Of a stretch of 64,000 nt of DNA, positions 2,036 through 21,752 are shown piece by piece. Numbering within the stretch: position 1 is the stretch's first letter; each line of letters starts with the position of its first letter. A program made the position numbers and the translations under genes. The notes beneath the pieces are model-generated. The model saw nothing but the letters and a program-made list of their open reading frames with translations. It was not told the DNA's origin and made no database searches. Source of the DNA: Kiritimatiellia bacterium (GTDB lineage Bacteria > Verrucomicrobiota > Kiritimatiellia > UBA8416 > JADHWI01); NCBI GenBank assembly GCA_030744755.1, contig JASLPY010000002.1, positions 67,006-131,005 on the forward strand, read 5' to 3'.

Positions 2036-2054
2036 TAATGGAGATGAAGAACCG

Positions 2055-3899
2055 ATGACTGTAAGGGCCGTAATCTTGGGGTTGATCCTGTCGGTGGTGA
2101 TGGGCTCCGCCAACGTATACCTGGGGCTGAAGGCTGGTATGACTGTGTCTGCGTCTATTCCGGCCGCGGTGCTTGCCATGGTCTTTCTGCGTGGCCTCTT
2201 CCGCAATGGTACTATCCTGGAATGCAACCAGGTGCAGACTGCAGCCTCGGCAGGTGAATCGTTGGCGGCCGGCATTATCTTCACGATGCCGGCAATGATT
2301 CTTATCGGGGCCTGGCAGAGATTCGATTGGGGCCTGACTACGATTATCGCGTTCACAGGTGGCCTGCTGGGAATCCTGTTTATGATCCCCATGCGACGGG
2401 TCTTTGTGATCACGGAGGACCCCGATCTTAAGTTCCCCGAAGGTGTGGCCTGCGCCGCAGTGCTTCGGGCGGGCCAGGAGAACGCCGAGAAGGGTTCGGC
2501 ACTCGCTATACTTCAAGGCGGCGTTATAGGAGCAGTGGTCAAGTTGCTTGCCGGCCTGGTCGGCGTTGTCAACGGAACCCTCGAAGGGGCCACGAGGCTG
2601 GGCGGACGAATCTTCTACCTTGGCACCGACGTCTCACCGGCCCTTCTGGCCGTGGGTTACATCGTGGGGCTCAACGTGGCCATTTTGATCTTTATCGGCG
2701 GCGCTATTGCCTGGTTGGTGGGCATTCCGCTTCTGAGCGGTGATCCCGCGTCGGCGGGTGAAGTACTGGACAGTGCCTGGACCTTGTGGTCCACCAAGGT
2801 TCGCTATGTCGGGGTCGGCTGCATGGCGGTAGGTGGCGTATCGTCAATATGGAAGGTGCGCGGAGGACTCGTTCACGCGGTACGTGAGATGGGTAGAAAA
2901 CCTGCCGCGTCGGCGGGGGCAACCGACAAAGACCGGGACCTGCCCAAAAGCATCATCGTAGCCCTCAGCATGATAGCCGTTCTCATGGTAGGCGGGGTTT
3001 ACTTTCACCTCACGGGTGACTTGAGAATGACTCTGATCATAACCGCCATAATGATTGTTATGTCTTTCTTCTTCACCGCGGTGGCCAGCTATATCGTTGG
3101 CTTGGTTGGCAACTCGAACAGCCCGGTTTCCGGCATGACCATTACCACCGTACTCTTTACCGGGTTGTTGCTGGTGGTTTTGGGCTTCTCGGGGACTTCC
3201 GGCATGGTGGCGGTCCTGGGAGTGGCGGCCATAGTCTGTTGCGTGGCCTGCACTTCGGGTGACATCTGTAATGACCTCAAGACCGGTCAACTGGTCGGTG
3301 CCTCGCCCATGCGCCAGCAACTGATGCAGATCGGCGGGGTTGCGGTGGCCTGCCTGGTTATGGCGCCGGTCATGCAGCTTCTGCATGAAGCGGCCGATGG
3401 AGGAATAGGTGGTCCCGAGCTACCGGCCCCCCAGGCTGCCCTGTTTGCCGGTCTCGTCAGAGGTTTCTTCGGGGAAGGAGCGTTGCCATGGGATCTCGTT
3501 GGGGTGGGAGCGGGACTGGGGTTGCTGTTCCTGGTGATCGACAGGATACTCGAGTGGCGCAAGACCACTTTTCGCGTGCACCTGATGCCGGTAGCGGTGG
3601 GCATGTACCTTCCTTTCGGACTGGCAGCACCGATTCTGATCGGCGGACTGATCAATCATGCTGTCGTTAGAGGCAGGAACGAAAACGACGCCCAGGAACG
3701 CAGCCGGCGAGGCGTGCTTTTTGCTTCGGGGGCCATTGCCGGTGAGTCTCTTATGGGCGTGGGTATTGCTGTACTCTACAGGTTGGGAATTGAGAAAATG
3801 GATCTGCAATTGAGCGATCCTGTTCTGACTACGACAACGATTGTCATTGCGGTGGGCCTGGTCTTGTGCTTCCGATGGTTCTCCAGGCCCAGGAACTGA
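2055..3899 (+). CDS. OPT-family oligopeptide transporter
   Basis: 614-aa polytopic membrane protein. The N-terminus MTVRAVILGLILSVVMGSANVYLGLKAGMTVSASIPAAVLAM is characteristic of the bacterial OPT/YgaY-like family. Confidence 0.85.
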   Translation: MTVRAVILGLILSVVMGSANVYLGLKAGMTVSASIPAAVLAMVFLRGLFRNGTILECNQVQTAASAGESLAAGIIFTMPAMILIGAWQRFDWGLTTIIAFTGGLLGILFMIPMRRVFVITEDPDLKFPEGVACAAVLRAGQENAEKGSALAILQGGVIGAVVKLLAGLVGVVNGTLEGATRLGGRIFYLGTDVSPALLAVGYIVGLNVAILIFIGGAIAWLVGIPLLSGDPASAGEVLDSAWTLWSTKVRYVGVGCMAVGGVSSIWKVRGGLVHAVREMGRKPAASAGATDKDRDLPKSIIVALSMIAVLMVGGVYFHLTGDLRMTLIITAIMIVMSFFFTAVASYIVGLVGNSNSPVSGMTITTVLFTGLLLVVLGFSGTSGMVAVLGVAAIVCCVACTSGDICNDLKTGQLVGASPMRQQLMQIGGVAVACLVMAPVMQLLHEAADGGIGGPELPAPQAALFAGLVRGFFGEGALPWDLVGVGAGLGLLFLVIDRILEWRKTTFRVHLMPVAVGMYLPFGLAAPILIGGLINHAVVRGRNENDAQERSRRGVLFASGAIAGESLMGVGIAVLYRLGIEKMDLQLSDPVLTTTTIVIAVGLVLCFRWFSRPRN

Positions 3900-3900
3900 T

Positions 3901-6900
3901 CTACTGTTTCTCAACCACTCGCGCGGATGCCCCCCACTCGCCACCGAGCTGAATGATTTTGAGCATAAGATCGTTGGTACCCTTCATGAGGCGCACGTTC
4001 ACCTTGTCTCTGCCACGCTTATGTGCCGTCACGATATCGTTTGACCAGATTGCTTCCCCATTAAGCCAGGCCTTGATTCCGTCGTCGCTTCCCAGCTCCA
4101 GGATGGCATCACGTTCAGTTGTCGAGAAGACACGGGTCCTCAGGTACGCCACGCGGTTATTCCCGCCAACAATCGCGGTCAGATTGATATCCCCCGGTCG
4201 AAGCAACTTGGTGAAGGGACCCGCCAGCGTATCGATCGAACGCCACTCGACTTCCGTGTTGCCGTCCTGTTCGGGCGGGAACGCGGTATTGAAGAGGGAC
4301 TGCCTGTTGCCACCCGAGTAAGGTCCGGCCAATTCCCACGTGCAGATGCAACCGCCGATCTCCTTCACGGCATTCTGAAGATTCTTCACTTTCTGAAGGA
4401 CAAACTGTTTGTCCTCAGGTCGCCGCGCGAATTCAGCCGCAGCTTCCACTTTCGGCAGAACACGGTCATTGCCGGGGCTGAAGTCGCGCACCAGCATGTC
4501 TACGTATCCGCGAAATGCGAGTACACCGGCAACCATGTCCGGATCATCGCGTGCCATGTCGCGCAGAAGAGGTAGCGGCTTCGTTGTAGGCCAGTCGGAC
4601 AGGGCCCGAATCGCGGCCTTCCGGACCTCAACAACCTTGCTGTCCAGCGACTCCTTGATCGCTCCAAATGCGCGGTCCGTTCCGGAACGCCCCAGGACCT
4701 CAATCACTACGGGCTTCGTCGTTGAGTCGATCTTGTTGAGCACCGCTATCAGGCGTTCAATCTGTTTGTCCGTAACGCCGGCTTTTGCCACGATTGCTTT
4801 CATTGCGGCGGTAAGACGGGAACGATCGGATTCGGTCATCTCCACGGGCAACAGATCAACCAGGTCATCAAGATGTTCATTGGTCACGAGTGCGCGCAGA
4901 GCACGCAGTGCTGCGGAACGTTCTTCATCGCCTCCCTTTCTGACAGCTCCAATCAGGGAAGGGACTGCCTCTGACATTCCACGATCAGCCACGACACCCA
5001 TCATTTCGCAACGATTTGTGACCTGTCCCCCGGACAACCTCGCAAGGATGGCGGGTCCAACACCGGGTGCGTCAAGGCGACACAGGCTTTCCCGTGACAG
5101 TTTTCCCGGCTCGCCCTCTTCCAGCATCCTTTGCTCAAGTAATGCAACATGTGTCGGGCCGCCGAGGCCGCCAAGTGCTCTTATCGCTACGAGGTCGACG
5201 GCGTTGGTGCCATCCCTGGCCAGCTTTGCCACTGCATCCGCAGCACCGCGGTCCCCGCGTTGTTCCAATCCCGCGAGCAACACGATCTGGGCATCCTCGT
5301 GTAAGGAGGGCAACCGTTCGCCCGCGATTCTTGCGACTTCCGATCCATTGAGTTTCACCAACAGGCCGGCTGCCGCCAGGCATATCTCGCGGCTCTTTGA
5401 ATCCAGGGCCGCGATTACCGATTTCACTGCCACTGCATTGTCGAGACGCGCAAGGCCGTCAAGCGCCGCTACCCGCAGTGCCGTTGTCCCGCCATTTGCA
5501 TACACATCCTCGAGAACTCTCTGTGCCTTCTGCCTGGCGCCGCCTACCAGCAAACGATTTGCACAGGCAAGCCTCGCATGCGTTCTTGCAACCGTAAACT
5601 CCTTAGGCAAGCGTATTTCCTTCAGTGCTGCGAGGGCTGTCTCGGAACCCATGGATCCCAAGGCCCCCACCGCCGCGCAGACAACGGTCGTGTCCTGGCT
5701 GCCGGCCAGTGCGGCCAGCTTGTCCACGGCCTGACCGTCGCGGCGTTCGCCCACAACATTGATCACGCCCACCAGTTCATCTCCCTTGAATCGTGCCATT
5801 GCTGCTCTGAGTTCCCCTTCGCTTTCCGGTCCCGGCAGGCTTCTCAACGCTTCCAGCGCGGCATGGAAAGTGGCGGGTTCATCCATCAGCGAGGCAAGTG
5901 TTGAAACCAGCGGAGAGCCGTCGTCCGTCTTGGGCGTATTTACAGGGGCCCGGCGCTTTCCGAAGGGCATAAAGAGAGAGCGTTTGCGCTCGGCGCGGAC
6001 GGACGTTGTTGGGTGCCTCGCACTCACGTTTCCCCATTTGCCCAGCAGCCCGATCAGGCGGCATTTCGCGTCCGGCGTTGTTTTCTTCGAGGCCAGCATG
6101 TCCAGCAACTTACCCTGTATGATATCCCGTCCTTCCGGTCGCGCGTCGCGCAGGCGTTCTTCCAGAACGGTGAAGGCCTTCCGGCTGCCGCCGGCCTTGT
6201 ACGAAGCGATCTCCTTCATCAGATCCGTCCCGAGCAGCTCGCCTTCCCAGGAAGGTGCAGCCGGCGTCAGCTTTCTCCAGGCATCCATCGTCCCGGCGAG
6301 ATTAGCATGTGCATCGCCTCCGATACCGAAACCCTGGAATCCAACCGGGCCCTTGTACCCAACGTCCTTCAGCGCGGCCATGACCTTCCCGACATCATAG
6401 TTCCCGCGATCAAGTCTCTGAATCAGTTGCTTCCAGTCTTTGCCCCCGCGATCTGCGCCGTTTATTGAGACCATGGTCAGTAGCGGCGCCGCTTTTCGAA
6501 TGATTGTCACGAGATCCTGGTTTGGCGACACTTTCAGCCAGTGACACAGGTTGAATGTCACGCCGACATTCGGACGGTTAACTTTTTCCGCTACGCGGAG
6601 ACCGTCCTCCACACGTTCAATCCATGATCCGGCATGCGGATAAAGCGCCACACGCAACTTGTTCTTCGCAGCCAGATCTGCGATCTCCCGCAAATAGGGT
6701 ACGGCCAGCAAATCGCCAATGGGAGAAGAGAACCGGCTCGACGAGCTGTTCACTGCCAGCCAGAGACAAGAAACCCGGCCTTTCAGCACGGTCATAGCTT
6801 CGACCAGGTTCCCAGGTATCTGTTCGGCATCAACGGAAACAGTGAGGTAGATCGCGTAGAGCTTAAGCTTCTTGGCATCCAGGAGGCGAAGTGTGTCTTT

Positions 6901-7110
6901 CAGGTCGGCGATGTTGCCAAGTCCGAGGGAGATTCCATCGTAGCCGAGTTCCGCTACCATTTTCACCTGGCTCTCGCGTGTCCTGTGCTTGGCATCGCCA
7001 ATAGCCGTATCCATGGCAAAGAACTCGTTGGCTTGGCGCGCGCCTGCAACAGGCGCGCTCAACAACACACTCACCGCAAGAAGAGATATCAGCATCAAAA
7101 GTCTATTCAC
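3901..7110 (-). CDS. Secreted multidomain protein: xylose-isomerase-like TIM barrel, then HEAT repeats, then a C-terminal beta-sandwich
   Basis: GTG start with ribosome-binding site agagga, followed by a signal peptide. The N-terminal approximately 300 aa carry sugar-phosphate isomerase/epimerase motifs (..ALYPHAGSWIERVEDGLRVAEKVNRPNVGVTFNLCHWL..). The middle approximately 500 aa contain many A/L/G-rich HEAT/PBS-lyase-like repeats. The C-terminal approximately 200 aa form a ConA/LamG-like jelly-roll (..GIKAWLNGEAIWSNDIVTAHKRG..). Confidence 0.8.
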   Translation of the reverse strand: MNRLLMLISLLAVSVLLSAPVAGARQANEFFAMDTAIGDAKHRTRESQVKMVAELGYDGISLGLGNIADLKDTLRLLDAKKLKLYAIYLTVSVDAEQIPGNLVEAMTVLKGRVSCLWLAVNSSSSRFSSPIGDLLAVPYLREIADLAAKNKLRVALYPHAGSWIERVEDGLRVAEKVNRPNVGVTFNLCHWLKVSPNQDLVTIIRKAAPLLTMVSINGADRGGKDWKQLIQRLDRGNYDVGKVMAALKDVGYKGPVGFQGFGIGGDAHANLAGTMDAWRKLTPAAPSWEGELLGTDLMKEIASYKAGGSRKAFTVLEERLRDARPEGRDIIQGKLLDMLASKKTTPDAKCRLIGLLGKWGNVSARHPTTSVRAERKRSLFMPFGKRRAPVNTPKTDDGSPLVSTLASLMDEPATFHAALEALRSLPGPESEGELRAAMARFKGDELVGVINVVGERRDGQAVDKLAALAGSQDTTVVCAAVGALGSMGSETALAALKEIRLPKEFTVARTHARLACANRLLVGGARQKAQRVLEDVYANGGTTALRVAALDGLARLDNAVAVKSVIAALDSKSREICLAAAGLLVKLNGSEVARIAGERLPSLHEDAQIVLLAGLEQRGDRGAADAVAKLARDGTNAVDLVAIRALGGLGGPTHVALLEQRMLEEGEPGKLSRESLCRLDAPGVGPAILARLSGGQVTNRCEMMGVVADRGMSEAVPSLIGAVRKGGDEERSAALRALRALVTNEHLDDLVDLLPVEMTESDRSRLTAAMKAIVAKAGVTDKQIERLIAVLNKIDSTTKPVVIEVLGRSGTDRAFGAIKESLDSKVVEVRKAAIRALSDWPTTKPLPLLRDMARDDPDMVAGVLAFRGYVDMLVRDFSPGNDRVLPKVEAAAEFARRPEDKQFVLQKVKNLQNAVKEIGGCICTWELAGPYSGGNRQSLFNTAFPPEQDGNTEVEWRSIDTLAGPFTKLLRPGDINLTAIVGGNNRVAYLRTRVFSTTERDAILELGSDDGIKAWLNGEAIWSNDIVTAHKRGRDKVNVRLMKGTNDLMLKIIQLGGEWGASARVVEKQ

Positions 7111-7176
7111 AATGTTCCTCTAGATTGATCTATCCATCAACTCCATAGATTTCCGCGCACGCGCCTACGCAATAGT

Positions 7177-7291
7177 CCCGTAGCTGAATTCGTTAGAATT
7201 CAGACTCTCTCGGTCCAGAACCCTTTCACCCTTCGGAATCCTCACCCTCCGTCGCCAAAGGCTATGGAGGCCAAGCGGATCCCGCTACATG
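7177..7291 (+). repeat. Intergenic MITE-like repeat, copy B (about 115 bp)
   Basis: Second copy of the two conserved blocks seen at 1923-2035, in the same orientation. It lies between two minus-strand genes. Confidence 0.6.
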
Positions 7292-7326
7292 GGGTCCAGT
7301 AAACAGATCTTCGTGAATAATCCAGA

Positions 7327-8646
7327 CTACACTGCTGACAGTGACCATGGCGCACGCATTGCGCGTGACCGCATCGCATTGGCCTGGTCGTCATCTAAGA
7401 ATGATTCGTTGTCAGGATTCCACCGCAATTTTCGCCCCAGCAGCATGGCGATGTTGCCCAGGTGGCAAATTGTGGCCGTACGGTGTCCCACTTCAGCCGG
7501 TGCATACGTAGGCTGTCGGCTCTTAACGCAGTTGAGGAAATCGCGGTGTTCGCGATCCTTGCATGTGCGCAGGTGGATTTCATCCGGGCCTATCACAGAA
7601 TGGAGGATCTCTTCGGACGAAGCCTGCACGGCCGCCTCCCAGTTAGGGACATGCACCCAACCTTCATCGCCCTCGAAGCGAATACCTGGAACGCCGCTTT
7701 TGCAGCTCAGTTTCACTCCGTTCGCATATTCGTAGAGTACGTCAAACGTAAGGGCCGTGTTGTACAATCCATCCTGCGGGAAAACGCCGTGCCCTTCGAC
7801 GCTGACCGGTCCGCTGTGTTCCGTATCGTTTCCCCACTGTGCAACATCGTTGATATGGGCTCCCCAATCGGTCATAAGGCCGCCGGAGTAGTCGAAGATC
7901 CACCTGAAGTCGAAATGGCACCGTCCGCGCGTGTACGGAGCTTCCGGCGCCTGGCCGAGCCACATGTCGTAGTCGAAACCGTCAGGGACAGGTTGGGGCG
8001 GATGGGCCTGAGGCCCGACGTTCTGTCTGCTGCCCCCCTGCGGCAGTTCGGCGCGAATAGTGTGCAGCTTACCTATACGGCCGTTGCGCACCAGTTCACA
8101 TGCTCGCAGGAAATTCCCCTTCGACCGGTTTTCGCTGGCAGTCTGGAAAATCCGACCGTACTGGCGCATTGTATCGCTCAACACGCGTCCTTCGTGGATG
8201 GTCAGGGTGAGCGGTTTCTCGCAGAACACATCTTTTCCGGCGCGAGCCGCCGCGATGGCCGGTAGCACGTGCCAGTGATCAGGCGTGGAAACAACAACGG
8301 CATCAATATCATCGCGTGCGACGATTTCGCGCCAGTCGCCGGTTGTTACAGGACGCTCCGATTGCCCCTGTCTGGAGTAATGCTGCTGTGTCCTCTCGGC
8401 GGCCGACTTGAGCCGGTTCGCATCAACATCGCACAGTGCGACCACTTGAGCGTCCGGCTGGTGCAAGAAGGAGTTCAGGTTGACCCCCACACCGTGGCCT
8501 CCCAGGCCGATAAACCCGAGGGCGATTCGGTTACCCGGAGACGGCGAGGAGTCATTACCAAGAGCGCGTGCAGGGATAATCACGGGCAGCCCGATCGCGG
8601 CAGTTCCCGCAGCGAGGGTGGTTCTCAGAAAACGTCGTCGATTCAT
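7327..8646 (-). CDS. Gfo/Idh/MocA-family oxidoreductase with a Tat signal (periplasmic sugar dehydrogenase)
   Basis: Strong ribosome-binding site aaaggagg. Twin-arginine signal MNRRRFLRTTLAAGTAAIG. Rossmann GFIGLGGHG followed by the family core; approximately 439 aa. Confidence 0.85.
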   Translation of the reverse strand: MNRRRFLRTTLAAGTAAIGLPVIIPARALGNDSSPSPGNRIALGFIGLGGHGVGVNLNSFLHQPDAQVVALCDVDANRLKSAAERTQQHYSRQGQSERPVTTGDWREIVARDDIDAVVVSTPDHWHVLPAIAAARAGKDVFCEKPLTLTIHEGRVLSDTMRQYGRIFQTASENRSKGNFLRACELVRNGRIGKLHTIRAELPQGGSRQNVGPQAHPPQPVPDGFDYDMWLGQAPEAPYTRGRCHFDFRWIFDYSGGLMTDWGAHINDVAQWGNDTEHSGPVSVEGHGVFPQDGLYNTALTFDVLYEYANGVKLSCKSGVPGIRFEGDEGWVHVPNWEAAVQASSEEILHSVIGPDEIHLRTCKDREHRDFLNCVKSRQPTYAPAEVGHRTATICHLGNIAMLLGRKLRWNPDNESFLDDDQANAMRSRAMRAPWSLSAV

Positions 8647-8835
8647 GATCCTCCTTTATGGACAATATGAAGCAGAGCTCTCCTATACTATAAGCAAGGC
8701 GAAATGGTCAACCTCCACGTTGCGGATTTGTGCCACAGCGCAAGTTCCTCGTAAGAGAGCTATTTTCCCTGTCGTTCTGGTCAATGCAAGCGGGGTGAAT
8801 CAGAGGTGTGATGTTTTGTTTACCCCACAGCGGAA

Positions 8836-8973
8836 GGCGTTAGGCGCTAGGCGTTAGTAGCTAGGACTCTGGACGCGCAAATCGACCCCACGGTTTTCAA
8901 CGGCTTACGAGACAGGCATGGCTCCGCGGACGGCGGACCTTTCCTGCTAACGCCTAGCGCCTAACCCCTAGCC
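8836..8973. repeat. 138-bp element flanked by 19-bp perfect (about 30-bp imperfect) terminal inverted repeats
   Basis: Left arm ggcgttaggcgctaggcgttag (8836-8865) is the reverse complement of right arm ctaacgcctagcgcctaac (8943-8973). The left arm also contains an internal direct repeat of gcgttag. Confidence 0.5.
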
Positions 8974-8978
8974 ACTGC

Positions 8979-8999
8979 GTTCTGCGCGCCGCGCAGAAC
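8979..8999. promoter_or_regulatory. Perfect 21-bp palindrome (gttctgcgcg-c-cgcgcagaac), candidate operator
   Basis: Exact dyad symmetry about 90 bp upstream of the 9090 ORF. The central loop is too small for an RNA hairpin, so it fits a dimeric-repressor site better. Confidence 0.35.
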
Positions 9000-9089
9000 A
9001 CTCGTAAGAGTCTTTCCGTTTACAACTCATGGTCTACGCTCTAGACTTAAGTTGGCTGATGAATTGCAAAGCACCAAAAGGAGATCATC

Positions 9090-9368
9090 ATGGAGCAGAA
9101 TTATCAGTATTCCGGGAAGGTGACCCCACAGGGTATAGTTCTGGGCCTGGTAGCAGGCTGCGCGGCTGCTGCGGTTCTTTGCATACCGTACGCCTATATC
9201 ACCATCTTTATCCCGCTGGTCTTTTTCAATGTGGTTGCAACTATCATTTTCGGCATGATTGCAGGGATGTGTGCGGGGTGGGGTGGGCGCAAGGGCAATA
9301 TGCAGAGCGCCGCCATGTACGTGGTTGTCGGGCTGATCGTCGGCCTTGTTGCGGAGTATCTCAACTGA
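9090..9368 (+). CDS. Small membrane protein (92 aa), hypothetical
   Basis: Ribosome-binding site aaaaggag 7 nt upstream of the ATG. Two or three predicted hydrophobic helices with G/A-rich faces. Confidence 0.5.
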   Translation: MEQNYQYSGKVTPQGIVLGLVAGCAAAAVLCIPYAYITIFIPLVFFNVVATIIFGMIAGMCAGWGGRKGNMQSAAMYVVVGLIVGLVAEYLN

Positions 9369-9407
9369 GTTTTATGGGTATTCGTTTTTTCAGGACACGA
9401 GGCGGTT

Positions 9408-9908
9408 GTGCTGAGTCCCGTGCACCTTCTCAACATAGCTCGTGTGGTTATGGAGGAAGGGACCTGGGGAATGACCAGCGGAGATAATGTTGCCGGCCTG
9501 GAGCTGGCGTGTGTCTGGATTGCCGAAGGTCTGATGATTGTAGGAGGCTCTATCTACATGGCTCGCGGTGGGCTTACTTCATACATCTGCTGCCCTGACT
9601 GCACTGTGTGGTTCAAGGATCCGACAAAAACTATGAGCTACGAAATGCCGGAAGATCTCGACAAGGTAGTACATGACCTGAAGGGACTGAATCTAAAGAC
9701 TCTCCATCATCTGACCCCTCTGACAGGACAGAAACCGGCATCTCTTGAGTTTGACATATTCTTCTGTCCTGCATGCTCCACGTTCGGATGTTTTGACCTG
9801 CAGACCGTGGAACTCATCCAAAAGAAGAAAAAGGTGGAGACGAAGAAGGCGAAGTTGATAGACAGGCTGCTTCTCCCCAAGGAGGGATTGGCAGACTTGC
9901 TCAAATAA
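9408..9908 (+). CDS. Hypothetical protein with Cys clusters (CCPDC...CPAC, zinc-ribbon-like)
   Basis: GTG start 40 nt after the preceding ORF, so likely co-transcribed. Contains a hydrophobic segment, two Cys-x-x-Cys-type clusters and a Lys-rich C-terminus. Confidence 0.4.
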   Translation: MLSPVHLLNIARVVMEEGTWGMTSGDNVAGLELACVWIAEGLMIVGGSIYMARGGLTSYICCPDCTVWFKDPTKTMSYEMPEDLDKVVHDLKGLNLKTLHHLTPLTGQKPASLEFDIFFCPACSTFGCFDLQTVELIQKKKKVETKKAKLIDRLLLPKEGLADLLK

Positions 9909-9984
9909 GGGTTGGTTGTCGGCCTGCGATTGCTACAGGTGAAACCGACTCCGTTGTATGTATGAAGAAAGGAAGGGGATAAAT

Positions 9985-10713
9985 ATGAAGAGTCATATGC
10001 ATGTATTAGTCCTGGTTGTGTGTCTTGTGTCTTTCGGGTCTGTGATGACGGCGGGTGCGGAGGATACGGAATGTGTTGACCTGATGAAAGTTGAAGGGTT
10101 GGAGTCATTTCGTGAGCCAACGGGAGACTGGACGGTTGTTGGAAACGTGTCAAAAGACACGAAGAACGAACGTCTACTGGCCTCCGAGCCCGGCAAGGGG
10201 ACTGTTGTAAACGGGGCCAAGGGGCGGACCAAACACCTCTTCACGAAACTGGAGCACGGAGACATAGAGGCCCACATTGAGTTCGTGGTTCCGGCCAAGT
10301 CAAACTCGGGGGTCTATTTCCAGGGAAGGTATGAAATTCAGGTGCTGGACAGTTGGGGTGTTGAGAAACCCAAGCATGGCGATTGCGGCGGTATCTACCA
10401 GCGATGGAAGCAGGGCAAAGGATATGAAGGCCGTCCTCCGCGGGTCAATGCTTCGCGCAAGCCGGGGGAGTGGCAGTCGTTCGATGTGATATTCCGTGCG
10501 CCGCGTTTTGATAAGGACGGGAAGAAGACAGCCAACGCGGTTTTTGTAAAGGTTGTTCACAACGGAGTTGTGGTGCACGAAAACGAGGAACTTTCGGGAC
10601 CGACCCGCGCATCTGCTTACAATGATGAAAAGCCTCTTGGCCCACTGATGTTCCAGGGCGACCACGGTCCGGTTGCCTATCGAAACGTTCGGATCAAGTT
10701 GCTGAAGAACTAA
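9985..10713 (+). CDS. DUF1080 (3-keto-disaccharide hydrolase family) secreted protein
   Basis: Ribosome-binding site aaggaagggga before the ATG at 9985; the track's upstream start at 9958 is unlikely. Signal peptide present. Hallmark motifs SGVYFQGRYEIQVLDSW and MFQGDHGPVAYRNVRIK. Confidence 0.85.
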   Translation: MKSHMHVLVLVVCLVSFGSVMTAGAEDTECVDLMKVEGLESFREPTGDWTVVGNVSKDTKNERLLASEPGKGTVVNGAKGRTKHLFTKLEHGDIEAHIEFVVPAKSNSGVYFQGRYEIQVLDSWGVEKPKHGDCGGIYQRWKQGKGYEGRPPRVNASRKPGEWQSFDVIFRAPRFDKDGKKTANAVFVKVVHNGVVVHENEELSGPTRASAYNDEKPLGPLMFQGDHGPVAYRNVRIKLLKN

Positions 10714-10857
10714 CCGGCAAGGCAGAACACGGCTCAGCGCAGCTTTGCCCTCCATGCGTTGTCTAGAATGGCTGAGATTGTGGTCATGCAGGGCGAGGCC
10801 GTGCCGAGCCGGGGAGCACCCCGCCGATTTTCGATAGGCGCGATGACAGGTGAGAGT

Positions 10858-11157
10858 ATGAAAGAAGTGTGGTCAAGCCCCAGTCTCGTACAGTGCGACC
10901 TCGTCAAGGCTATGCTTGAGGGTGAAGGTATCGAGTGCGCGGTACGAAATGAGAGCAATGCGCGTTTCGCGGGAATAGGCTATCCGTTGCTTTCCGGGCA
11001 GACGCTCGCTTTTGCGTGGCCGCAACTGTGGGTGCCCGACGCGCAGTTTGAGAGGGCATCAGAGATAGTGCGTGACTATTCCAAAGGTCATGAGGAAACG
11101 CTCGAACGAGACAAGGAAAGATTGTCCGGCAATGAAACCGAGAGCGACGACTCGTAA
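10858..11157 (+). CDS. DUF2007-domain protein (putative signal-transducing protein)
   Basis: Internal ATG with ribosome-binding site ggtgagag. Matches the DUF2007 pattern ..VWSSPSLVQCDLVKAMLEGEGIECAVRNE..WPQLWVPDAQFERASEIV.. The upstream extension (from 10759) carries no domain. Confidence 0.55.
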   Translation: MKEVWSSPSLVQCDLVKAMLEGEGIECAVRNESNARFAGIGYPLLSGQTLAFAWPQLWVPDAQFERASEIVRDYSKGHEETLERDKERLSGNETESDDS

Positions 11158-11181
11158 CTTCTCATGGAGGAATGTTCGATG

Positions 11182-12372
11182 AGAATCACGCAAAGACGAT
11201 TTACAAACCGTGTCTTGCGAGCAATGCCGGTGATCCTCATCTTCCTGACCCTTGAAGCGCCTGCGCCTGGTGCTGACATCATGGTTCGTGATGCGAAAGA
11301 ATTGCGGGACGAGTTGCGTGGGGCACAACCCGGCGCCACGATCAGGCTGGCCCCGGGGAACTACGGTAGTGGTATTGGGGTCAAGGACCTCAATGGCACG
11401 AAAGACAAACCGATCGTCATTACGGGTGCAGACGCCCGGAATAGACCTTTGTTCGCCGGCGGTAACGAAGCCATACATTTTATCAATTGCAATTACATTA
11501 CGCTGCGTGACATCAAGGTATCCGGCTGTTCGGGAAACGGGATCAATGCCGACGATGGCGGCAGCTTTGATACGCCGTCAAGGGGGATGGTTTTTGAGAA
11601 TGTCACCATTGAAAACGTCGGGCCAACGGGCAATAGGGACGGCCTGAAACTGTCCGGTCTGGATTATTTCGTGGTCAGGAACTGCCGGATCTCCGGCTGG
11701 GGAGGTTCGGCAATCGATATGGTAGGGTGTCATGATGGTGTCATCGAAAGATGCCAATTCCTTGGTAAACAGGGATTTTCCCAGAGCACGGGAATCCAGA
11801 CCAAGGGTGGGTCCGAGAACATCATGATCAAGCAGAACTTTTTCAAGAACGCCGGCGGACGTGCTGTCAATATAGGCGGCAGTACCGGCCTTCAGTACTT
11901 CCGGCCAACTCTGCGTGACTACGAAGCGAAAGCCATTGAAGTTGCTGGGAACCACTTTGTCGGGAGTATGGCGCCGGTCGCTTACGTCACGTCGATCAAA
12001 TGCCTGGTGCGTCAAAATACCATTATCAACCCGGAGAAATGGGTCATGCGAATCCTCCAGGAACAGCCGACTGACAAGTTCCAGCCGTGCCAGCAGGGAG
12101 TCTTCGAAGCCAACCTGGTTGTTTTCGACAGACGAGTACGGACATTCGTCAACATCGGGCCAAACACAAAGCCCGAAACGTTTGTGTTCCGGAGAAACGC
12201 TTGGTTCTGCAGTGATGGGAACCGTCGCCCCTCGCTGCCTGCCAAGGAAGTCGATGGCGTCTATCAAATCGATCCCAAGCTGCAGAACCTTGAGACGCCC
12301 AGTCTGAAAGTGGGATCCAGAAATCTGAAACTGCAGGGTATAGGCGCCCATGCCTTCAGAATGCGAGATTAA
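11182..12372 (+). CDS. Right-handed parallel beta-helix repeat protein (pectate-lyase fold), secreted
   Basis: Ribosome-binding site ggagga. Signal-like N-terminus. Repeated motifs of the form ..NCxIxG..GIN.. (NCNYITLRDIKVSGCSGNGINADD, VRNCRISGWGGSAIDM). Confidence 0.7.
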   Translation, partial: RITQRRFTNRVLRAMPVILIFLTLEAPAPGADIMVRDAKELRDELRGAQPGATIRLAPGNYGSGIGVKDLNGTKDKPIVITGADARNRPLFAGGNEAIHFINCNYITLRDIKVSGCSGNGINADDGGSFDTPSRGMVFENVTIENVGPTGNRDGLKLSGLDYFVVRNCRISGWGGSAIDMVGCHDGVIERCQFLGKQGFSQSTGIQTKGGSENIMIKQNFFKNAGGRAVNIGGSTGLQYFRPTLRDYEAKAIEVAGNHFVGSMAPVAYVTSIKCLVRQNTIINPEKWVMRILQEQPTDKFQPCQQGVFEANLVVFDRRVRTFVNIGPNTKPETFVFRRNAWFCSDGNRRPSLPAKEVDGVYQIDPKLQNLETPSLKVGSRNLKLQGIGAHAFRMRD

Positions 12373-12387
12373 GAGGAAAACACAGTT

Positions 12388-15300
12388 ATGAAATCACTAT
12401 CAATCGTCCTGGTTGTGTTCGTGGCCTGTACCACCCGGTCCATCGCGGAGAAAGCGAATGGGCGCAAAGCCGTGCAAACGGAACTGGTTAAGGCCTCGGG
12501 TGTAACGGGAGGGCTGGTCGTTATTGTTGGTGACAATACTCAACTGGCGACTGAACTGGGATCAAAGGGCTCATACCTGGTGCACGTAATTGATACAGAC
12601 CAGGCAAGAGTCGACCGGGCAAGGGCACATATCCAATCAAAAGGACTTTACGGAACAGTGTCCGCGGATACGTTTGACGGAATCCATCTGCCCTACGTGG
12701 ACAACCTGGTGAACTTGGTCGTGATAGGGGACAGGCAATGTGAAATACGGCATGAGGAGGTCGAGCGCGTGCTTGCTCCTCGCGGCGTAGCCATCGCGCC
12801 GAAAGGTGCATCATGTATCCCTGACCCTTCCCTCCTCATAGCCGATGGGTTGGTTAGCTTCACAAACCCGGTTCCTTCCACTATTGACGACTGGACCCAT
12901 TTCCTGCATGGATCCGACAACAATGCCGTGGCTCGCGACAGCGTTGTTGGCCCGCCCCGGCATATGCAATGGGTGGGTGGCCCGCGCTACGGAAGGCATC
13001 ACGATAAGATGTCCAGTATCAGCGCCGTAGTCTCGTCAAGGGGGCGCGTCTTCTACATACAGGATGAAACTTCTCCTTTCTCGGTTCTTACGGCCCCGGA
13101 ATGGAAGCTCGTCGCCCGCGATGCCTTTAACGGGACAGTGCTCTGGAAACGGCATATAGCCAAATGGTTCAATGACCTCCATCCCCACAAAAGCGGCCCG
13201 GCAAATCTGCCGCGCAAGCTGGTCGCCGATGAAGACCGGGTCTACGTAACCCTCTCCATCGACGGTCCCGCCCTTGCCCTGAACGCAGCAACGGGTGAGA
13301 CGGTTAATACGTACGAAGGAACAGAACCGGCCGACGAACTTATGTACTCAGACGGAATTCTCTTTGTACGAAAAGAGACTGGGCTCTCGGCGTTCGATGC
13401 GGTTTCCAGCAAGGAACTGTGGAAAACCGACCAGGTACCCGTCAAGGGAAGCCTCGCCGTTGACGATGAGCGTGCCGTGTTCCTGGTTGGAGACCGAATT
13501 GCCTGTCTCAACAAGAAGGACGGAAAACAGATATGGCAATCGGAACCGGTGCCTCGACCCGAGAAGTACCATGTACGATTCACCCCAACCCTCATCCTTT
13601 ACGATGACATCGTGCTCTGGGCGGGTGGCGAGAAATCTGTGGGTCACAAGGATCACCAGGGGAACTACTCCTGGTTCAAAGGCCTTAACGATACCGTCAA
13701 CGCGCTGTCAGCCGAGACAGGCAAGCTGTTGTGGACGGCTCCTCATCCGTTATCCGGGTATGCTTCATCAGAGGATCTCTTCGTGATAGACGGGGTCGTC
13801 TGGTGTGGCGAAACCACCAGTGGCCACGCCGTAGGTCACTACAAGGGGCATGATGTAAAGACCGGCAAGGTCGTCAAGGAATTCGATCCGGATGTGGATA
13901 CTTACTGGTTTCATCACCGCTGTCATCGGGGCAAGGCGACCGAGAAGTTCATCCTGACGTCACGGACGGGCACCGAGTTTATCGACCCCAAGACCGGGCA
14001 CTGGCAGATCAACCACTGGGTACGCGGCGCATGTCTCTATGGCATCATGCCGGCCAACGGCCTGGTTTACTCGCCCCAGAATCCCTGTGCATGCTTTCTC
14101 GACAGCAGGATGGACGGTTTCAATGCTCTTGCCCATTCGCAAACGCCCTTCCCGAAAACGGAAACAGGACGACTCGAAAAAGGCCCTGCCTATCCGGAGG
14201 CCAGAGATCGGAAGTCAGAAGTCGGCAGGGCAGAGCCGCCCTCCGATCTCCGATCTCCGATCTCTGCTTCTTCCTGGCCCACCTACAGAGGCAACAACGG
14301 ACGAAGCGGAAGCATCGAGGCGAAGGTACCTCCTGAGGTGAGACCAGCCTGGGCAACGAAGATTGCCGGACGGATCAGCAGTCCAACGATTGCCTTCGGC
14401 AAAGTCTTCGTGGCCGCGATCGATCAGCACAAGGTTGTTGCCCTTGACGAAAAAGATGGGAAGATCCTCTGGCAGTATACAACCGGGGGGCGTGTGGATT
14501 CACCGCCAACTCTCATAGAGGCGGCAAAGGGCAAGGGGCAGAAGACGGTCGCCCTCTGTATCTTCGGCTCGCGCGACGGGATGATCACTTGCCTGAATGC
14601 ATCTGACGGCAAGGTTGCCTGGCGTTTCCGCGCCGCACCTGCCGACCGGCGTTTGATGGCATACGAGCAGATCGAATCGCTCTGGCCCGTAAGCGGCAGT
14701 GTGCTGGTCCACGACAATGTCCTCTACGCGGCGGTTGGACGATCCTTCTTCCTGGATGGTGGTCTTCGCCTCCTGCGGCTGGATCCCGTGAGCGGGAAAC
14801 TGCTTTCAGAGACTATGATGGGAGAGAAAGATGAGAAGGGCGAGGCGATACAGAGCTACGCCCGCCAACACAACATGCCCACTTCCCTTCCGGACATTCT
14901 CTCCTGTGACGGGAAGTATGTCTTCATGCGGTCGCAAGCTTTCAGGCTGGACGGCACCAGGTTGCCGCTGAAGGCATTGGAATACGGCGGCAATCCGGAA
15001 CGCTACTCTATCAAACCGACGCAGGATCCGGCGTTCGCGCATCTCTTCAGCCCCACGGGATTCCTGGACGACTCCTGGTGGCACCGGACCTACTGGGTAT
15101 ACGGCAGTCGCTTTATCGGGGGCTGGGCAGGCTATCCCCAGGCCGGCAAGGTTGCCCCGTCCGGCCGTATCCTGGTTTTTGACGATGACAGAGTGTTCGG
15201 TTATGGACGCCTGCCAAAGTTTTACCGCTGGACCAAGCCAATCGAACATCGCCTTTTCGCTGCCAGGAAGACCGGTTTCAAGATCAATGACAAGGAGGCG

Positions 15301-15627
15301 TATTCCTGGACTGGAGACATTGCCATGTTCCCGAGAGGTATGGTCAAGGCCGGCAATCTGCTGTTCATCGCGGGGCCGGAGGATTTCGTGAACGAAGAAG
15401 CCGCCTATCGCCACCGGAACAACCCAGAGTGGCAGGAAAAGATCCGCCGTCAGGCCGAAGCTTTCTCAGGAAGCGCCGGCGGTTTTCTGAGAGCAATGAA
15501 CACGGAGACGGGCGAGCAGGCCTCGCAGATAAAGATCGGCAGCATCCCCGTCTTTGACGGCATGGCCGCGGCCAACAGCAGGTTGTACATATCGCTCGTT
15601 GATGGCAGCGTCATGTGCTTGGAGTGA
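12388..15627 (+). CDS. PQQ-like beta-propeller repeat protein with an N-terminal methyltransferase-like Rossmann domain
   Basis: Ribosome-binding site aagagga. Signal peptide. GLVVIVGDNTQLATELG..VHVIDTD resembles methyltransferase motif I. Multiple PQQ/BamB-type blades (KILWQYTTGGRVDSPP, KVAWRFRAAPADRRL). 1079 aa. Confidence 0.75.
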   Translation: MKSLSIVLVVFVACTTRSIAEKANGRKAVQTELVKASGVTGGLVVIVGDNTQLATELGSKGSYLVHVIDTDQARVDRARAHIQSKGLYGTVSADTFDGIHLPYVDNLVNLVVIGDRQCEIRHEEVERVLAPRGVAIAPKGASCIPDPSLLIADGLVSFTNPVPSTIDDWTHFLHGSDNNAVARDSVVGPPRHMQWVGGPRYGRHHDKMSSISAVVSSRGRVFYIQDETSPFSVLTAPEWKLVARDAFNGTVLWKRHIAKWFNDLHPHKSGPANLPRKLVADEDRVYVTLSIDGPALALNAATGETVNTYEGTEPADELMYSDGILFVRKETGLSAFDAVSSKELWKTDQVPVKGSLAVDDERAVFLVGDRIACLNKKDGKQIWQSEPVPRPEKYHVRFTPTLILYDDIVLWAGGEKSVGHKDHQGNYSWFKGLNDTVNALSAETGKLLWTAPHPLSGYASSEDLFVIDGVVWCGETTSGHAVGHYKGHDVKTGKVVKEFDPDVDTYWFHHRCHRGKATEKFILTSRTGTEFIDPKTGHWQINHWVRGACLYGIMPANGLVYSPQNPCACFLDSRMDGFNALAHSQTPFPKTETGRLEKGPAYPEARDRKSEVGRAEPPSDLRSPISASSWPTYRGNNGRSGSIEAKVPPEVRPAWATKIAGRISSPTIAFGKVFVAAIDQHKVVALDEKDGKILWQYTTGGRVDSPPTLIEAAKGKGQKTVALCIFGSRDGMITCLNASDGKVAWRFRAAPADRRLMAYEQIESLWPVSGSVLVHDNVLYAAVGRSFFLDGGLRLLRLDPVSGKLLSETMMGEKDEKGEAIQSYARQHNMPTSLPDILSCDGKYVFMRSQAFRLDGTRLPLKALEYGGNPERYSIKPTQDPAFAHLFSPTGFLDDSWWHRTYWVYGSRFIGGWAGYPQAGKVAPSGRILVFDDDRVFGYGRLPKFYRWTKPIEHRLFAARKTGFKINDKEAYSWTGDIAMFPRGMVKAGNLLFIAGPEDFVNEEAAYRHRNNPEWQEKIRRQAEAFSGSAGGFLRAMNTETGEQASQIKIGSIPVFDGMAAANSRLYISLVDGSVMCLE

Positions 15628-17467: not shown

Positions 17468-18637
17468 CTACCTCAGCATGGTTTCGTAGCATTCTGCAAG
17501 CCGTTTCTTGAACTGCTGGAAGTTATACGTGTCGTCTATCAGCCGGCGTCCGTTCTCTGCCAGTCTTTTCCGTAACTGGGGATCATCCAGCAGATTGCAG
17601 ATTGCCCGTGCGAATTCAGGCGGCTTGGGTTCGGCGAGAACTGCAATGGTCTCGTCCAGGATCAGCCGGTTTGCATCGGTGTCGGTTGCCACGATTGCGC
17701 TTTCGGCTTTGAGGTAATCGAGGAGCTTGAGCGGAGTGTTCACACCGCTGAGCCGTGGAGATAAGAGGATGTCAGCCGCAGCCAGGAAGTGGGGCAGGTC
17801 GTCCGGGGGTATCTTGCCCGCAAAGGTCACCGAATCCTCACAGTTTCTGTCCGTCAGCCACCGCTTCCTCTGTTCGATTTCCCCGGGCGTGCCGCCCACA
17901 ATCACGAACCGTGCCTCCGGATGACTCTTAACGACTTCGGGAACCGATTCGAACATAAGGTCGACTCCCTGATAAACGGCAAAAGATCCCACGAACATCA
18001 CAAGTCTTTCTTCCTGTGAGCCCGCGAGTTCTTTCCGGTGTGCATCGGCACGCTCCGGGGTAGGTTCAACAAGAGATGATGGAATGTCGAAGATGTGGTG
18101 ATGAGATGCGTGCCCCGCCATGGCCCTGGTCTGCGCGACAAGACCTTCTCCCGTTCCTATCACCGCATCGGCCCTGCGGACTATGAAGCGTTCCAGTGCC
18201 GCATACCCGCGCATCAAAAAGTTGCGAAGGGCGCCTTTCTTGTAGGCAGAAGGATCGCTGTGCTTCTCGTACACAAGTTTGCTCCCGGCAACCTTTGCAA
18301 CGAAAACGCCTATGGCCCCAGCATCTTCGACGCCATGAATAACTGCGTAACGGTTTCTGCGAGCCAGGGACAGGGCCTTGAACAGGAGAATGATATCGAA
18401 AAGCGCCTTCGATACTGACGGTCCTATCGGAACGTTCTTCACGCCCAGAAGGTTCGGAACCCTGATCACATTGACCCCATCAATCTGCCGATCTTCGCCA
18501 ATGGGCAGAGTCAATAGATCCACCTGATATCCGGATTCTGCCAGTGCCTGCAGATCGAATCCTGCCCGTATGGGTGATCCCCGCCACTGGAAAAACGGTT
18601 GCGGCAGAATGAACAGAACTTTCTCAGCGTCACTCAT
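17468..18637 (-). CDS. Family 4 glycosyltransferase (GT-B)
   Basis: GT4 pattern with an N-terminal acceptor domain. C-terminal ..FVGSFAVYQGVDLMFES.. followed by a TGEGL/E-x7-E-like region. Confidence 0.85.
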   Translation of the reverse strand: MSDAEKVLFILPQPFFQWRGSPIRAGFDLQALAESGYQVDLLTLPIGEDRQIDGVNVIRVPNLLGVKNVPIGPSVSKALFDIILLFKALSLARRNRYAVIHGVEDAGAIGVFVAKVAGSKLVYEKHSDPSAYKKGALRNFLMRGYAALERFIVRRADAVIGTGEGLVAQTRAMAGHASHHHIFDIPSSLVEPTPERADAHRKELAGSQEERLVMFVGSFAVYQGVDLMFESVPEVVKSHPEARFVIVGGTPGEIEQRKRWLTDRNCEDSVTFAGKIPPDDLPHFLAAADILLSPRLSGVNTPLKLLDYLKAESAIVATDTDANRLILDETIAVLAEPKPPEFARAICNLLDDPQLRKRLAENGRRLIDDTYNFQQFKKRLAECYETMLR

Positions 18638-18817
18638 GTCTATTTAAGTTTCCTTTGTGCTTCGTACTTTCGTATTGTGAACGGAAAGAGACGGCATGCC
18701 CCACTAGTAGGGATTTTCTTGTTGCAAATCAAATCGTTTCTTGCAGAATGCCGTCTCAATTTGCGCGGCGGGACCGAGGATGACGAACAAGCCGCGACAC
18801 AAAACCCGGAGAGAATC

Positions 18818-21040: not shown

Positions 21041-21092
21041 TGACAACCTGAGAAGAACGCCCCGCACCGTTTTCGCCGCCTTTGCCGCAATC

Positions 21093-21752
21093 ATGGCATT
21101 GGACATACTGTTCGTTGTCCTGCACCTGCTGATTGGTGAGAAATTCGATATCATCAACCTTGACCAGGAAGGGAACCTGACCGCCTGGTATTCCAGCACA
21201 AAGCTCCTTGCCCTGGCGGCAATGTGTTTCACGATCTGGTCTACCGAACGGATTGCGAAGGTCGGTAAAAAGTGGCGTCTCACCGTGCTGTGGCTTCTTG
21301 TCGCGGCCGTCTTCCTGGGATTGAGCATGGACGAGACGGCAAGCATACATGAGCGGCTTGCACGATTCGTCATGCAGGAATCTTACGTCGGCCTGGACAT
21401 CAGGGAATCTGTTCTGGACGGGGATTCCACGAAGGACTCGTTCGCGTGGGTCCTGATTCTGTCGCCCATCATCTTGTCTGTTACGGTTTTCTTTTTCGTT
21501 TTTTTCTACAGCAGACTCTTCCTGTCCCGCACGGGCTATGTGCCTGCGCTCATAGCCCTCAGCATGTTTCTGATCGCGGTTGGAATGGAGGCGACGGTTT
21601 ATTTCACCCCATCCATGAGCGATTGGGACGCAAATATGCTGAACAAGTACAAGCTTGGGATTGCACTGGAAGAAACCGCGGAAATGATGGGAAGCACCCT
21701 TTTCCTCCTGGCATTCTGGCGCTACTGGCGGTTTCTGAAAGAAAGTCATTGA
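21093..21752 (+). CDS. Integral membrane protein, hypothetical
   Basis: In-frame ATG after the stop of the sulfatase-like gene. About 6 predicted transmembrane helices. No recognised domain. Confidence 0.5.
   Translation: MALDILFVVLHLLIGEKFDIINLDQEGNLTAWYSSTKLLALAAMCFTIWSTERIAKVGKKWRLTVLWLLVAAVFLGLSMDETASIHERLARFVMQESYVGLDIRESVLDGDSTKDSFAWVLILSPIILSVTVFFFVFFYSRLFLSRTGYVPALIALSMFLIAVGMEATVYFTPSMSDWDANMLNKYKLGIALEETAEMMGSTLFLLAFWRYWRFLKESH

Follow-up and report, generated by a model that had tools for sequence, protein, structure and literature searches.

Enzyme families of the BT2156-58 type carry out periplasmic 3-oxidation, 1,2-elimination and hydration of glycosides (PMC8121099; bioRxiv 10.1101/2024.03.25.586180). 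In the Bacteroides and Alistipes clusters BT2156-BT2160 and AL1-AL5, a Gfo/Idh/MocA oxidoreductase (Gfo), exported via the twin-arginine translocation (Tat) pathway with tightly bound nicotinamide adenine dinucleotide (NAD), oxidizes glycosides at C3 and is probably re-oxidized via reduction of a 3-keto sugar, and a TIM-barrel enzyme (BT1/AL1), using Co2+ bound by His/Asp/His together with a catalytic Glu, eliminates β-glycosides (PMC8121099; bioRxiv 10.1101/2024.03.25.586180). Here, we analyze a stretch of 64,000 nt from a Kiritimatiellia bacterium (GenBank assembly GCA_030744755.1, contig JASLPY010000002.1, positions 67,006-131,005 of the forward strand; hereafter the window), which encodes a Gfo protein, a TIM-barrel protein and a DUF1080 protein within 7 kb. 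We consider it somewhat better than an even bet that these form a periplasmic oxidoreductive glycoside-cleavage module of a Planctomycetota or, more broadly, Planctomycetes-Verrucomicrobia-Chlamydiae (PVC) type, a predicted variant of the BT2156-58 (AL1-3) pathway. Such a module would resemble the Agrobacterium tumefaciens AtOGE/AtHYD operon and the gut DgpA-DgpBC system (PMC10628242) in C3 oxidation, β-elimination by a TIM barrel, hydration and Gfo-type reduction, but the Agrobacterium oxidase is a flavoenzyme and its operon contains no DUF1080 gene (PMC10628242). Escherichia coli YcjQRS and Bacillus subtilis IolG/IolI likewise pair a Gfo dehydrogenase with a PF01261 TIM barrel acting beside the newly formed carbonyl, YcjS being a glucoside 3-dehydrogenase and YcjR a 3-keto-glucoside 4-epimerase; both systems differ, however, in being cytoplasmic and metal-dependent, in cleaving no glycosidic bond and in having no DUF1080 protein.

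A preliminary description of the window had grouped a xylose-isomerase-like TIM barrel, a Tat-exported Gfo/Idh/MocA enzyme and a DUF1080 protein, as families implicated in periplasmic glycoside 3-oxidation, a role demonstrated in Bacteroides and Alistipes; profile searches recovered all three assignments. The 439-residue protein encoded at 7327-8646 on the minus strand, first gene of a pair and candidate glycoside 3-dehydrogenase, matched PF01408 (E = 3e-19) and PF19051 (GFO_IDH_MocA_C2; E = 2e-31) in Pfam, and its N-terminus, MNRRRFLR, scored 18.1 bits with the TAT signal model TIGR01409 (cutoff 16.7). The second gene of the pair, at 3901-7110 on the same strand, encodes a large protein of 1069 residues (GTG start at 7110) or 1064 residues (ATG at 7095), the N-terminal part of which matched PF01261 (AP_endonuc_2; residues 138-272; E = 2.3e-15), followed by HEAT_2 (E = 1.6e-27). 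On the plus strand, an open reading frame (ORF) spanning 9958-10713 matched PF06439 (3keto-disac_hyd) with 112.9 bits against a cutoff of 26.8 (E = 2.5e-32). A Met at 9985 opens its signal peptide and is also the start used in 242-residue homologues, so that we describe this candidate 3-keto-glycoside lyase or 2-hydroxy-3-keto-glycal hydratase as a secreted DUF1080 protein of 242 residues (9985-10713). Export signals, read from the translations, start all three proteins, and hidden Markov models (HMMs) built from their homologues detected a single copy of each subfamily in the window.

In other genomes, conserved adjacency combined with reciprocal domain fusions argues strongly for joint action of the three proteins, and we hold their functional coupling with high confidence. 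In all seven homologous loci that we compared, the TIM gene has as its immediate codirectional neighbor a Gfo gene (423-442 codons, PF19051), 8-63 nt away. These loci come from relatives at 92%, 54%, 34% and 32% identity, from Kiritimatiella glycovorans L21-Fru-AB (29%; gene pair at 2223508-2227880 of CP010904) and from two genomes encoding TIM-DUF1080-HEAT-F5/8C and DUF1080-TIM-DUF1080 proteins; their Gfo proteins are 47-95% identical to that of the window and far better kept than their TIM partners. More broadly, a TIM profile, which matched 560 representatives of 50%-identity clusters at E <= 1e-30, was run on one genome per GTDB species and returned at least 580 relatives. The best 80 loci, which we analyzed further, belong mostly to Phycisphaerae/Sedimentisphaerales and Pirellulales, plus Verrucomicrobiota, Victivallales/Lentisphaeria and Hydrogenedentota. 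Upstream sequence was sufficient in 66 loci, of which 47 had an orthologous Gfo (>300 bits) next to TIM in the same orientation and eight a different Gfo-type neighbor. TIM and DUF1080 domains shared one ORF in 61 of the 80 loci, mostly in the order DUF1080-TIM (54 loci, an example being the ORF at 7943-9478 of L018; TIM-DUF1080 in 7).

The window proteins are tied to these fusions by sequence. Its separate DUF1080 protein is 55-68% identical (E = 1e-80 to 1e-104) to the TIM-fused DUF1080 domains of 11 database proteins. One homologue of the large protein (P0010) combines TIM, DUF1080 and HEAT domains with the C-terminal domain of the window protein, and another (P0063) is a Gfo-TIM fusion, the Gfo half of which is 36% identical to the window Gfo over its full length. 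Most often the module takes the form of a two-gene operon with Gfo ahead of DUF1080-TIM, whereas in the window lineage DUF1080 is a separate gene and the TIM barrel is mounted on HEAT and PA14-like domains, both arrangements differing from the BT/AL clusters. That DUF1080 and TIM are fused in most relatives agrees with the way in which BT2 and BT1 complement each other toward α- and β-anomers.

The best NCBIfam model of the Gfo protein is NF058561, the BT_2158_fam glycoside 3-dehydrogenase (129.8 bits; E = 1.1e-37), and its closest matches in the PDB are 8tdf and 8tdh (E = 3e-21), with DgpA among the next best (E = 2e-15). The residue pattern of 8tdf fits AL3 numbering with an offset of 29. 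The window protein has the Rossmann motif GFIGLGGHG and E143-K144-P145, and its D260 and H264 align to positions 219 and 223 of the 8tdf chain, that is, AL3 D248 and H252. GxGxxG and the catalytic motifs EKP (143-145) and D260-x3-H264 are kept in 124-128 of 128 Gfo orthologues, and the twin arginines occur in every one of the 116 that have an N-terminus. In a phmmer alignment, the AL3 pocket residues Gln161, Arg192 and Trp195 correspond to E172, Q203 and S206, with AL3 Tyr349 falling outside the aligned region. More than 8000 relatives of the protein were found at E <= 1e-20, and those that are named carry only labels such as 'Gfo/Idh/MocA family' or 'predicted dehydrogenase'.

The large protein comprises, from its N-terminus, a signal peptide, the TIM barrel (residues 25-290; 6241-7038), a HEAT-repeat α-solenoid (residues ~395-880; 4471-5928) and a PA14/galactose-binding-like β-sandwich (residues 905-1069; 3904-4398), an architecture kept at full length in homologues P0001-P0012, from 92% down to 32% identity. 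An AlphaFold2 (AF2) model of residues 25-295, built with 30 homologues, is a TIM barrel of eight β/α units (predicted local distance difference test (pLDDT) score 94.7), and Foldseek places it near ketose 3-epimerases, AsbF and YcjR (6wn6), with template modeling (TM) scores of 0.7-0.77 and 13-21% identity. In relation to the BT/AL system, the TIM domain has diverged furthest of the three components. A profile of 30 TIM domains retrieved IolI (1i60; E = 3e-9) and ketose 3-epimerases (E = 2e-7) from the PDB, as well as AsbF and IolE; run against all PDB sequences to E = 10, it found no AL1/BT1, AtOGE, DgpB/C or LgdB and no characterized 3-keto-glycoside lyase. AtOGE and the C-glycoside deglycosidases (CGD) use Mn2+ in a His/carboxylate site (PMC10628242), and we found no sequence relation between them and the window TIM. 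NCBIfam yielded weak epimerase or isomerase matches, all equivalog scores being <22 bits against cutoffs of 290-1200.

The TIM subfamily carries the signature Y157-P-H159 ... N187-L-C-H190-W ... (T/S)215-I-N-G-A-D220 ... G-(L/F)-Q259. Over 162 subfamily domains, Y157, H159, N187 and H190 are invariant, Q259 is present in 161 of 161 and D220 in 154 of 162, and position 215 is Thr, Ser or Asn, with one Ala; the conserved polar residues sit at the C-terminal ends of the barrel strands. When the subfamily is aligned to the epimerase 7cj4, the canonical Glu/Asp/His/Glu metal ligands fall at Y157, N187, S215 and Q259, which replace the tetrad of the PF01261 isomerases and epimerases (IolI, ketose 3-epimerases, YcjR). 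The metal-site residues of AL1/BT1 (H178, D211, H237 and E272) very probably occupy the same four positions, since the ligand spacing is identical (33/26/35), which would set Y/N/(T,S)/Q in the window subfamily against His/Asp/His/Glu in BT/AL. The invariant H159 lies two residues past the first ligand position, the same relative position as the substrate-binding His180/184 of AL1/BT1, and may be equivalent to the catalytic-base His of AtOGE/CGD; the second His and the Asp are located in loops above the barrel. Together, these residues may form a metal site of a new kind, an active site that works without metal, or a site for binding.

Of the remaining domains, the HEAT region has alphaRep matches over residues 449-876 and is possibly a scaffold. 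The C-terminal 165 residues have no Pfam assignment; their AF2 model is a β-sandwich (pLDDT 92.4), for which Foldseek returned the PA14 inserts of GH3 β-glucosidases (3ac0, 7pjj), CBM35 and a GH2 sugar-binding domain (TM score ~0.5, E ~1e-4), and weak Pfam PA14 matches occur in 6 of 13 homologues of the large protein. Going by the modeled fold, this domain is a probable carbohydrate-binding module. A PA14-like domain is also found in a DUF1549/DUF1553 protein (P0092), and one contig (L003, 4813-5218) departs from the window at 4058, inside the PA14-like motif LELGSDDGIK, to continue into a protein that looks, by eye, DUF1553-type; an assembly chimera at the shared domain is the most likely cause.

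In homologues P0010-P0081, the TIM domain is joined, at either end, to a wide range of partners: sulfatases, GH20, GH29, GH32, GH36, GH78 and SASA domains, GDSL and β-lactamase-like esterases, PQQ propellers, β-helices, DUF6807 (PF14100), FG-GAP/VCBS repeats and Gfo. Many other members of the subfamily are free-standing proteins of 290-305 residues. We entertain, as an unlikely but attractive proposal, that the YPH/NLCHW/INGAD/GLQ subfamily represents a new catalytic type of barrel that processes keto-sugars without the ancestral metal site and was recruited by PVC and Planctomycetota bacteria as a general accessory module; bacteria that degrade marine polysaccharides would then carry out oxidative (keto-intermediate) glycan processing through an extensive modular network in the periplasm, not through a single operon. 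At one locus encoding a DUF6807-TIM fusion (L098), a ThuA gene adjoins. ThuA works with ThuB, a dehydrogenase of the Gfo family, and together they make 3-keto-disaccharides.

The DUF1080 protein belongs to a family, PF06439, whose sole characterized activity is 3-keto-glycoside elimination and glycal hydration. Its closest solved relative is PDB 4qhz (profile E = 8e-32 over 160 aligned residues), a structural-genomics 'putative glycosyl hydrolase' that has Q-x-H where the window subfamily has an invariant Q-G-D-H; the Withers-lab DUF1080 entry 8tda (BT2 or AL2) matched the profile with E = 1.6e-3 over 37 residues. NSG, Y-E-I-Q (E-x-Q) and G-I-Y are likewise invariant in the subfamily. The reported active site of BT2 consists of E103, N134, E164, Q166, Y190, K245, Q273 and H275, and the four motifs plausibly match N134 (NSG), E164/Q166 (YEIQ), Y190 (GIY) and Q273/H275 (QGDH), the last spacing being off by one. 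The position of E103 is His or Asn in the subfamily, and no position could be assigned to K245; the alignment to 8tda covers only 37 residues.

From the families, export signals, folds, adjacency and fusions described above, we infer chemistry, substrate and division of labor along the following lines. Gfo would be exported folded via Tat with its NAD cofactor bound and, in the periplasm, would oxidize the C3 hydroxyl of the non-reducing-end sugar, in an oligosaccharide or glycoside, to a 3-keto-glycoside. The acidified C2 proton could then be removed and the aglycone eliminated, leaving a 2-hydroxy-3-keto-glycal that would be hydrated, with elimination and hydration split between the DUF1080 protein and the TIM domain. 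Reduction of the 3-keto sugar by Gfo would restore its own cofactor, and the HEAT solenoid and PA14-like sugar-binding end may hold the substrate or partner enzymes.

Several observations weigh against this pathway. The preliminary description had noted an arrangement unlike that of the described Bacteroides and Agrobacterium examples; in our comparison, the families, their clustering and the Gfo motifs agree with BT2156-BT2160/AL1-AL5, but equivalog scores, the TIM metal site and the AL3 pocket do not. All three window proteins form distant paralogue groups, none of them an equivalog: Gfo stays below the BT_2158_fam equivalog cutoff of 750 bits and matches only positions 1-255 of the 487-position profile, no BT2156- or BT2157-type NCBIfam model matched the TIM and DUF1080 proteins, and DUF1080, by its sequence, falls into the uncharacterized 4QHZ clade, remote from BT2/AL2. 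Positions 203-207 of Gfo vary within the subfamily, and AL3 R192 and W195 are not kept. Every characterized 3-keto-glycoside lyase of the TIM fold requires Co2+ or Mn2+, and the aligned residues of the TIM subfamily lack the metal site of BT1/AL1, AtOGE and the C-glycoside deglycosidases. With regard to gene order, the DUF1080 gene lies on the strand opposite to Gfo and TIM, its flank is not contiguous with Gfo in near-identical TARA contigs, more distant HEAT-type loci have no DUF1080 of the window subfamily within ~8 kb, and some members of the TIM subfamily have no Gfo neighbor at all. Finally, positions 1-20 kb of the window contain neither a cytoplasmic second Gfo (BT2159/AL4) nor a SusR/DUF6377 regulator, a further difference from the BT/AL clusters alongside the divergent DUF1080; BT_2159_fam scores only 18.7 bits on the window Gfo. 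The cytoplasmic Gfo and the regulator are dispensable in vitro for the Bacteroides/Alistipes pathway.

An explanation that we regard as improbable, though worth retaining, is redox epimerization or isomerization: Gfo would produce a keto-sugar or keto-glycoside, the TIM barrel would epimerize it beside the carbonyl and Gfo would reduce it again, making an unusual marine epimer usable. The relatives nearest to the TIM domain are indeed IolI, ketose 3-epimerases and YcjR, not lyases, and the Gfo-TIM pair is the conserved core of the HEAT-type loci, with no DUF1080 nearby. However, TIM is covalently joined in 76% of the genome loci to DUF1080, a family characterized only for elimination and hydration, and Tyr and Gln stand where the epimerases have their two catalytic Glu residues. 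Inositol catabolism of the IolG/IolI kind, suggested by the UniRef name 'inosose isomerase' of the K. glycovorans homologue, was rejected on the grounds of periplasmic export signals, a myo_inos_iolG score of 72 bits against a 355-bit cutoff and the DUF1080 fusions.

Slightly less credible still is a TIM barrel that serves as a non-catalytic sugar-binding or assembly module, leaving cleavage to Gfo and DUF1080 and making the large protein a HEAT/PA14 scaffold or substrate-capture device. Loss of all four canonical ligand positions argues for this, as do attachment to many unrelated catalytic domains, a pattern typical of binding modules, and the existence of fusions without Gfo nearby; yet the invariant polar set Y157, H159, N187, H190, D220 and Q259 (154-162 of 162) resembles an active or specific ligand site, and many members are free-standing. 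Coincidental adjacency of abundant PVC/Planctomycetota gene families can be practically discounted, for although Planctomycetes are strongly enriched in DUF1080 proteins, another DUF1080 gene is located just outside the left edge of the window and the DUF1080-side flank varies between strains, the window holds a single copy of each subfamily, and adjacency and fusion recur across several phyla.

An oxidoreductive glycoside-cleavage module of this kind would not be confined to the source organism. To our knowledge, oxidation-elimination-hydration of glycosides is a recent discovery, established only in gut Bacteroidota and a few soil or gut bacteria. The family triad and its chemistry are known already, but the literature that we searched contains no description of the wide distribution in PVC/Planctomycetota, of DUF1080-TIM or TIM-HEAT-PA14 architectures or of the remodeled TIM site, and nothing specific on DUF1080 or 3-keto-glycosides in PVC bacteria. 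Our results indicate that a divergent three-family system is widespread in Planctomycetota, Verrucomicrobiota, Lentisphaeria/Kiritimatiellota-like bacteria and Hydrogenedentota, groups that take a major part in breaking down polysaccharides of the sea and of sediments. Named relatives of the module proteins come from Kiritimatiella glycovorans, Lentisphaeria, Verrucomicrobiota and Planctomycetota, and the window Gfo protein itself is also encoded on TARA Oceans and other marine metagenome contigs, so that the source is probably an uncultured marine bacterium of the PVC group. If the system is active, carbon-cycle models would gain a further, non-Koshland route by which glycans are broken down, and enzymes of potentially broad specificity would become available. 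Its main value, in our opinion, is as a testable candidate for such breakdown in marine PVC bacteria, together with the mechanistic question posed by the remodeled TIM site: can 3-keto-glycosides undergo elimination or hydration without the Co2+/Mn2+ site of all known examples?

Recurring neighbors offer hints at the substrate. Around Gfo and DUF1080-TIM in Planctomycetota (seen in the set L018-L097, L012 and L015), 23 of 50 loci contain a URO-D-like gene, 18 a DUF4962 plus heparinase II/III-like gene, 22 a second DUF1080 type and 22 a MATE transporter. At the K. glycovorans locus, a URO-D-like gene lies two genes upstream, with sulfatases, GH38 and GH115 nearby. These neighbors hint at uronic-acid-containing or sulfated glycans, but may also be explained by common descent of the genomes sampled.

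Gene spacing within the window locus has been altered by insertions. The spacer between Gfo and TIM (7111-7326) measures 216 nt, against 8 nt in the 92%-identical relatives, and is widened by a ~116-nt intergenic repeat (7176-7291) that is present in at least three copies on the contig (also at 1922-2035 and, just left of the window, at 19820-19922 of L001), with 79% identity between copies and no Rfam match. Upstream of Gfo, the divergent intergenic region (8647-9089) contains an insertion of ~245 nt (8757-9001) that is missing from the 92% relatives and carries inverted repeats (8835-8860 and 8944-8969) and a GC hairpin (8975-9000). Two TARA contigs (L002, L004) are 99.9% identical to the window over 4479-9004 and diverge exactly at 9004, beyond which, as read from translations, they hold toxin-antitoxin-like, integrase-fragment and other ORFs. 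The segment 8757-9004 is probably a mobile-element edge or rearrangement hotspot.

Between this breakpoint and the DUF1080 gene, the preliminary description had seen a membrane-protein mini-operon inserted among the module genes. This proved to be a single gene on the plus strand (9090-9908), read as two frames (9090-9368 and 9408-9908) owing to a TGA at 9367-9369, where relatives have TGG; the TGA reflects either a nonsense mutation or an error in sequencing. The closest relatives (L006-L008) have the gene as well, encoding 237 residues with 99% identity, and the window frame extends ~35 codons beyond their stop. Its product has a membrane-embedded N-terminal part and a Cys-rich (CxxC...CxxC) C-terminal part, and matched nothing in Pfam or NCBIfam. 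Since only the closest relatives have the gene as a neighbor, we doubt that it belongs to the module.

The DUF1080 gene itself, divergent from Gfo at a distance of 1.3 kb, heads a tight string of plus-strand genes encoding DUF2007, β-helix and PQQ-like β-propeller proteins (10759-15627; gaps of 45, 6 and 15 nt), which are probably co-transcribed with it. We considered these genes as a link to the TIM fusions and dropped them as evidence: the propeller similarity was at repeat level only (30-35% over ~125 residues), and the β-helix showed no match to the types fused to TIM homologues. A scan of 3.5-11.2 kb for sigma-70 promoters and terminators gave matches no commoner than in shuffled sequence and so does not define operons. 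Rfam, applied to 1-12 kb, returned only a sub-threshold psbNH match (2037-2092, plus strand; 27.9 bits against 45; E = 0.004), which overlaps the start of the OPT transporter gene and was treated as chance.

On the other side of the pair lie an OPT transporter gene (2055-3899; Pfam), a CE15/AXE-like esterase gene (368-1519) and the C-terminal end of a sulfatase (18-335). The esterase and transporter had been noted correctly before, but the supposed sulfatase fragment is a 497-residue protein gene cut by the window edge. Among the seven loci compared, all three were kept only in the 92%-identical relatives and were rejected as module members for this reason. The first 18,646 nt of the window have an identical counterpart in JGI metagenome 3300035205 (contig Ga0373649_0000041, 143 kb). 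To the left of the window, beyond a GDSL esterase and the sulfatase, contig L001 carries a second, different DUF1080 gene (20708-21316; 50 bits with the subfamily HMM), indicating that the family is common in the source genome.

To the right, 15867-45010 constitutes a large polysaccharide-biosynthesis or modification region with GT2, GT4, PMT_2-like and other large membrane proteins, an FrhB/FdhB-like protein beside a polysaccharide pyruvyl transferase, two LPG_synthase_TM proteins, a hexapeptide acyltransferase, an NAD-dependent epimerase and GDSL esterases. At 18599-21040, a sulfatase is joined to an unassigned N-terminal region of ~380 residues.

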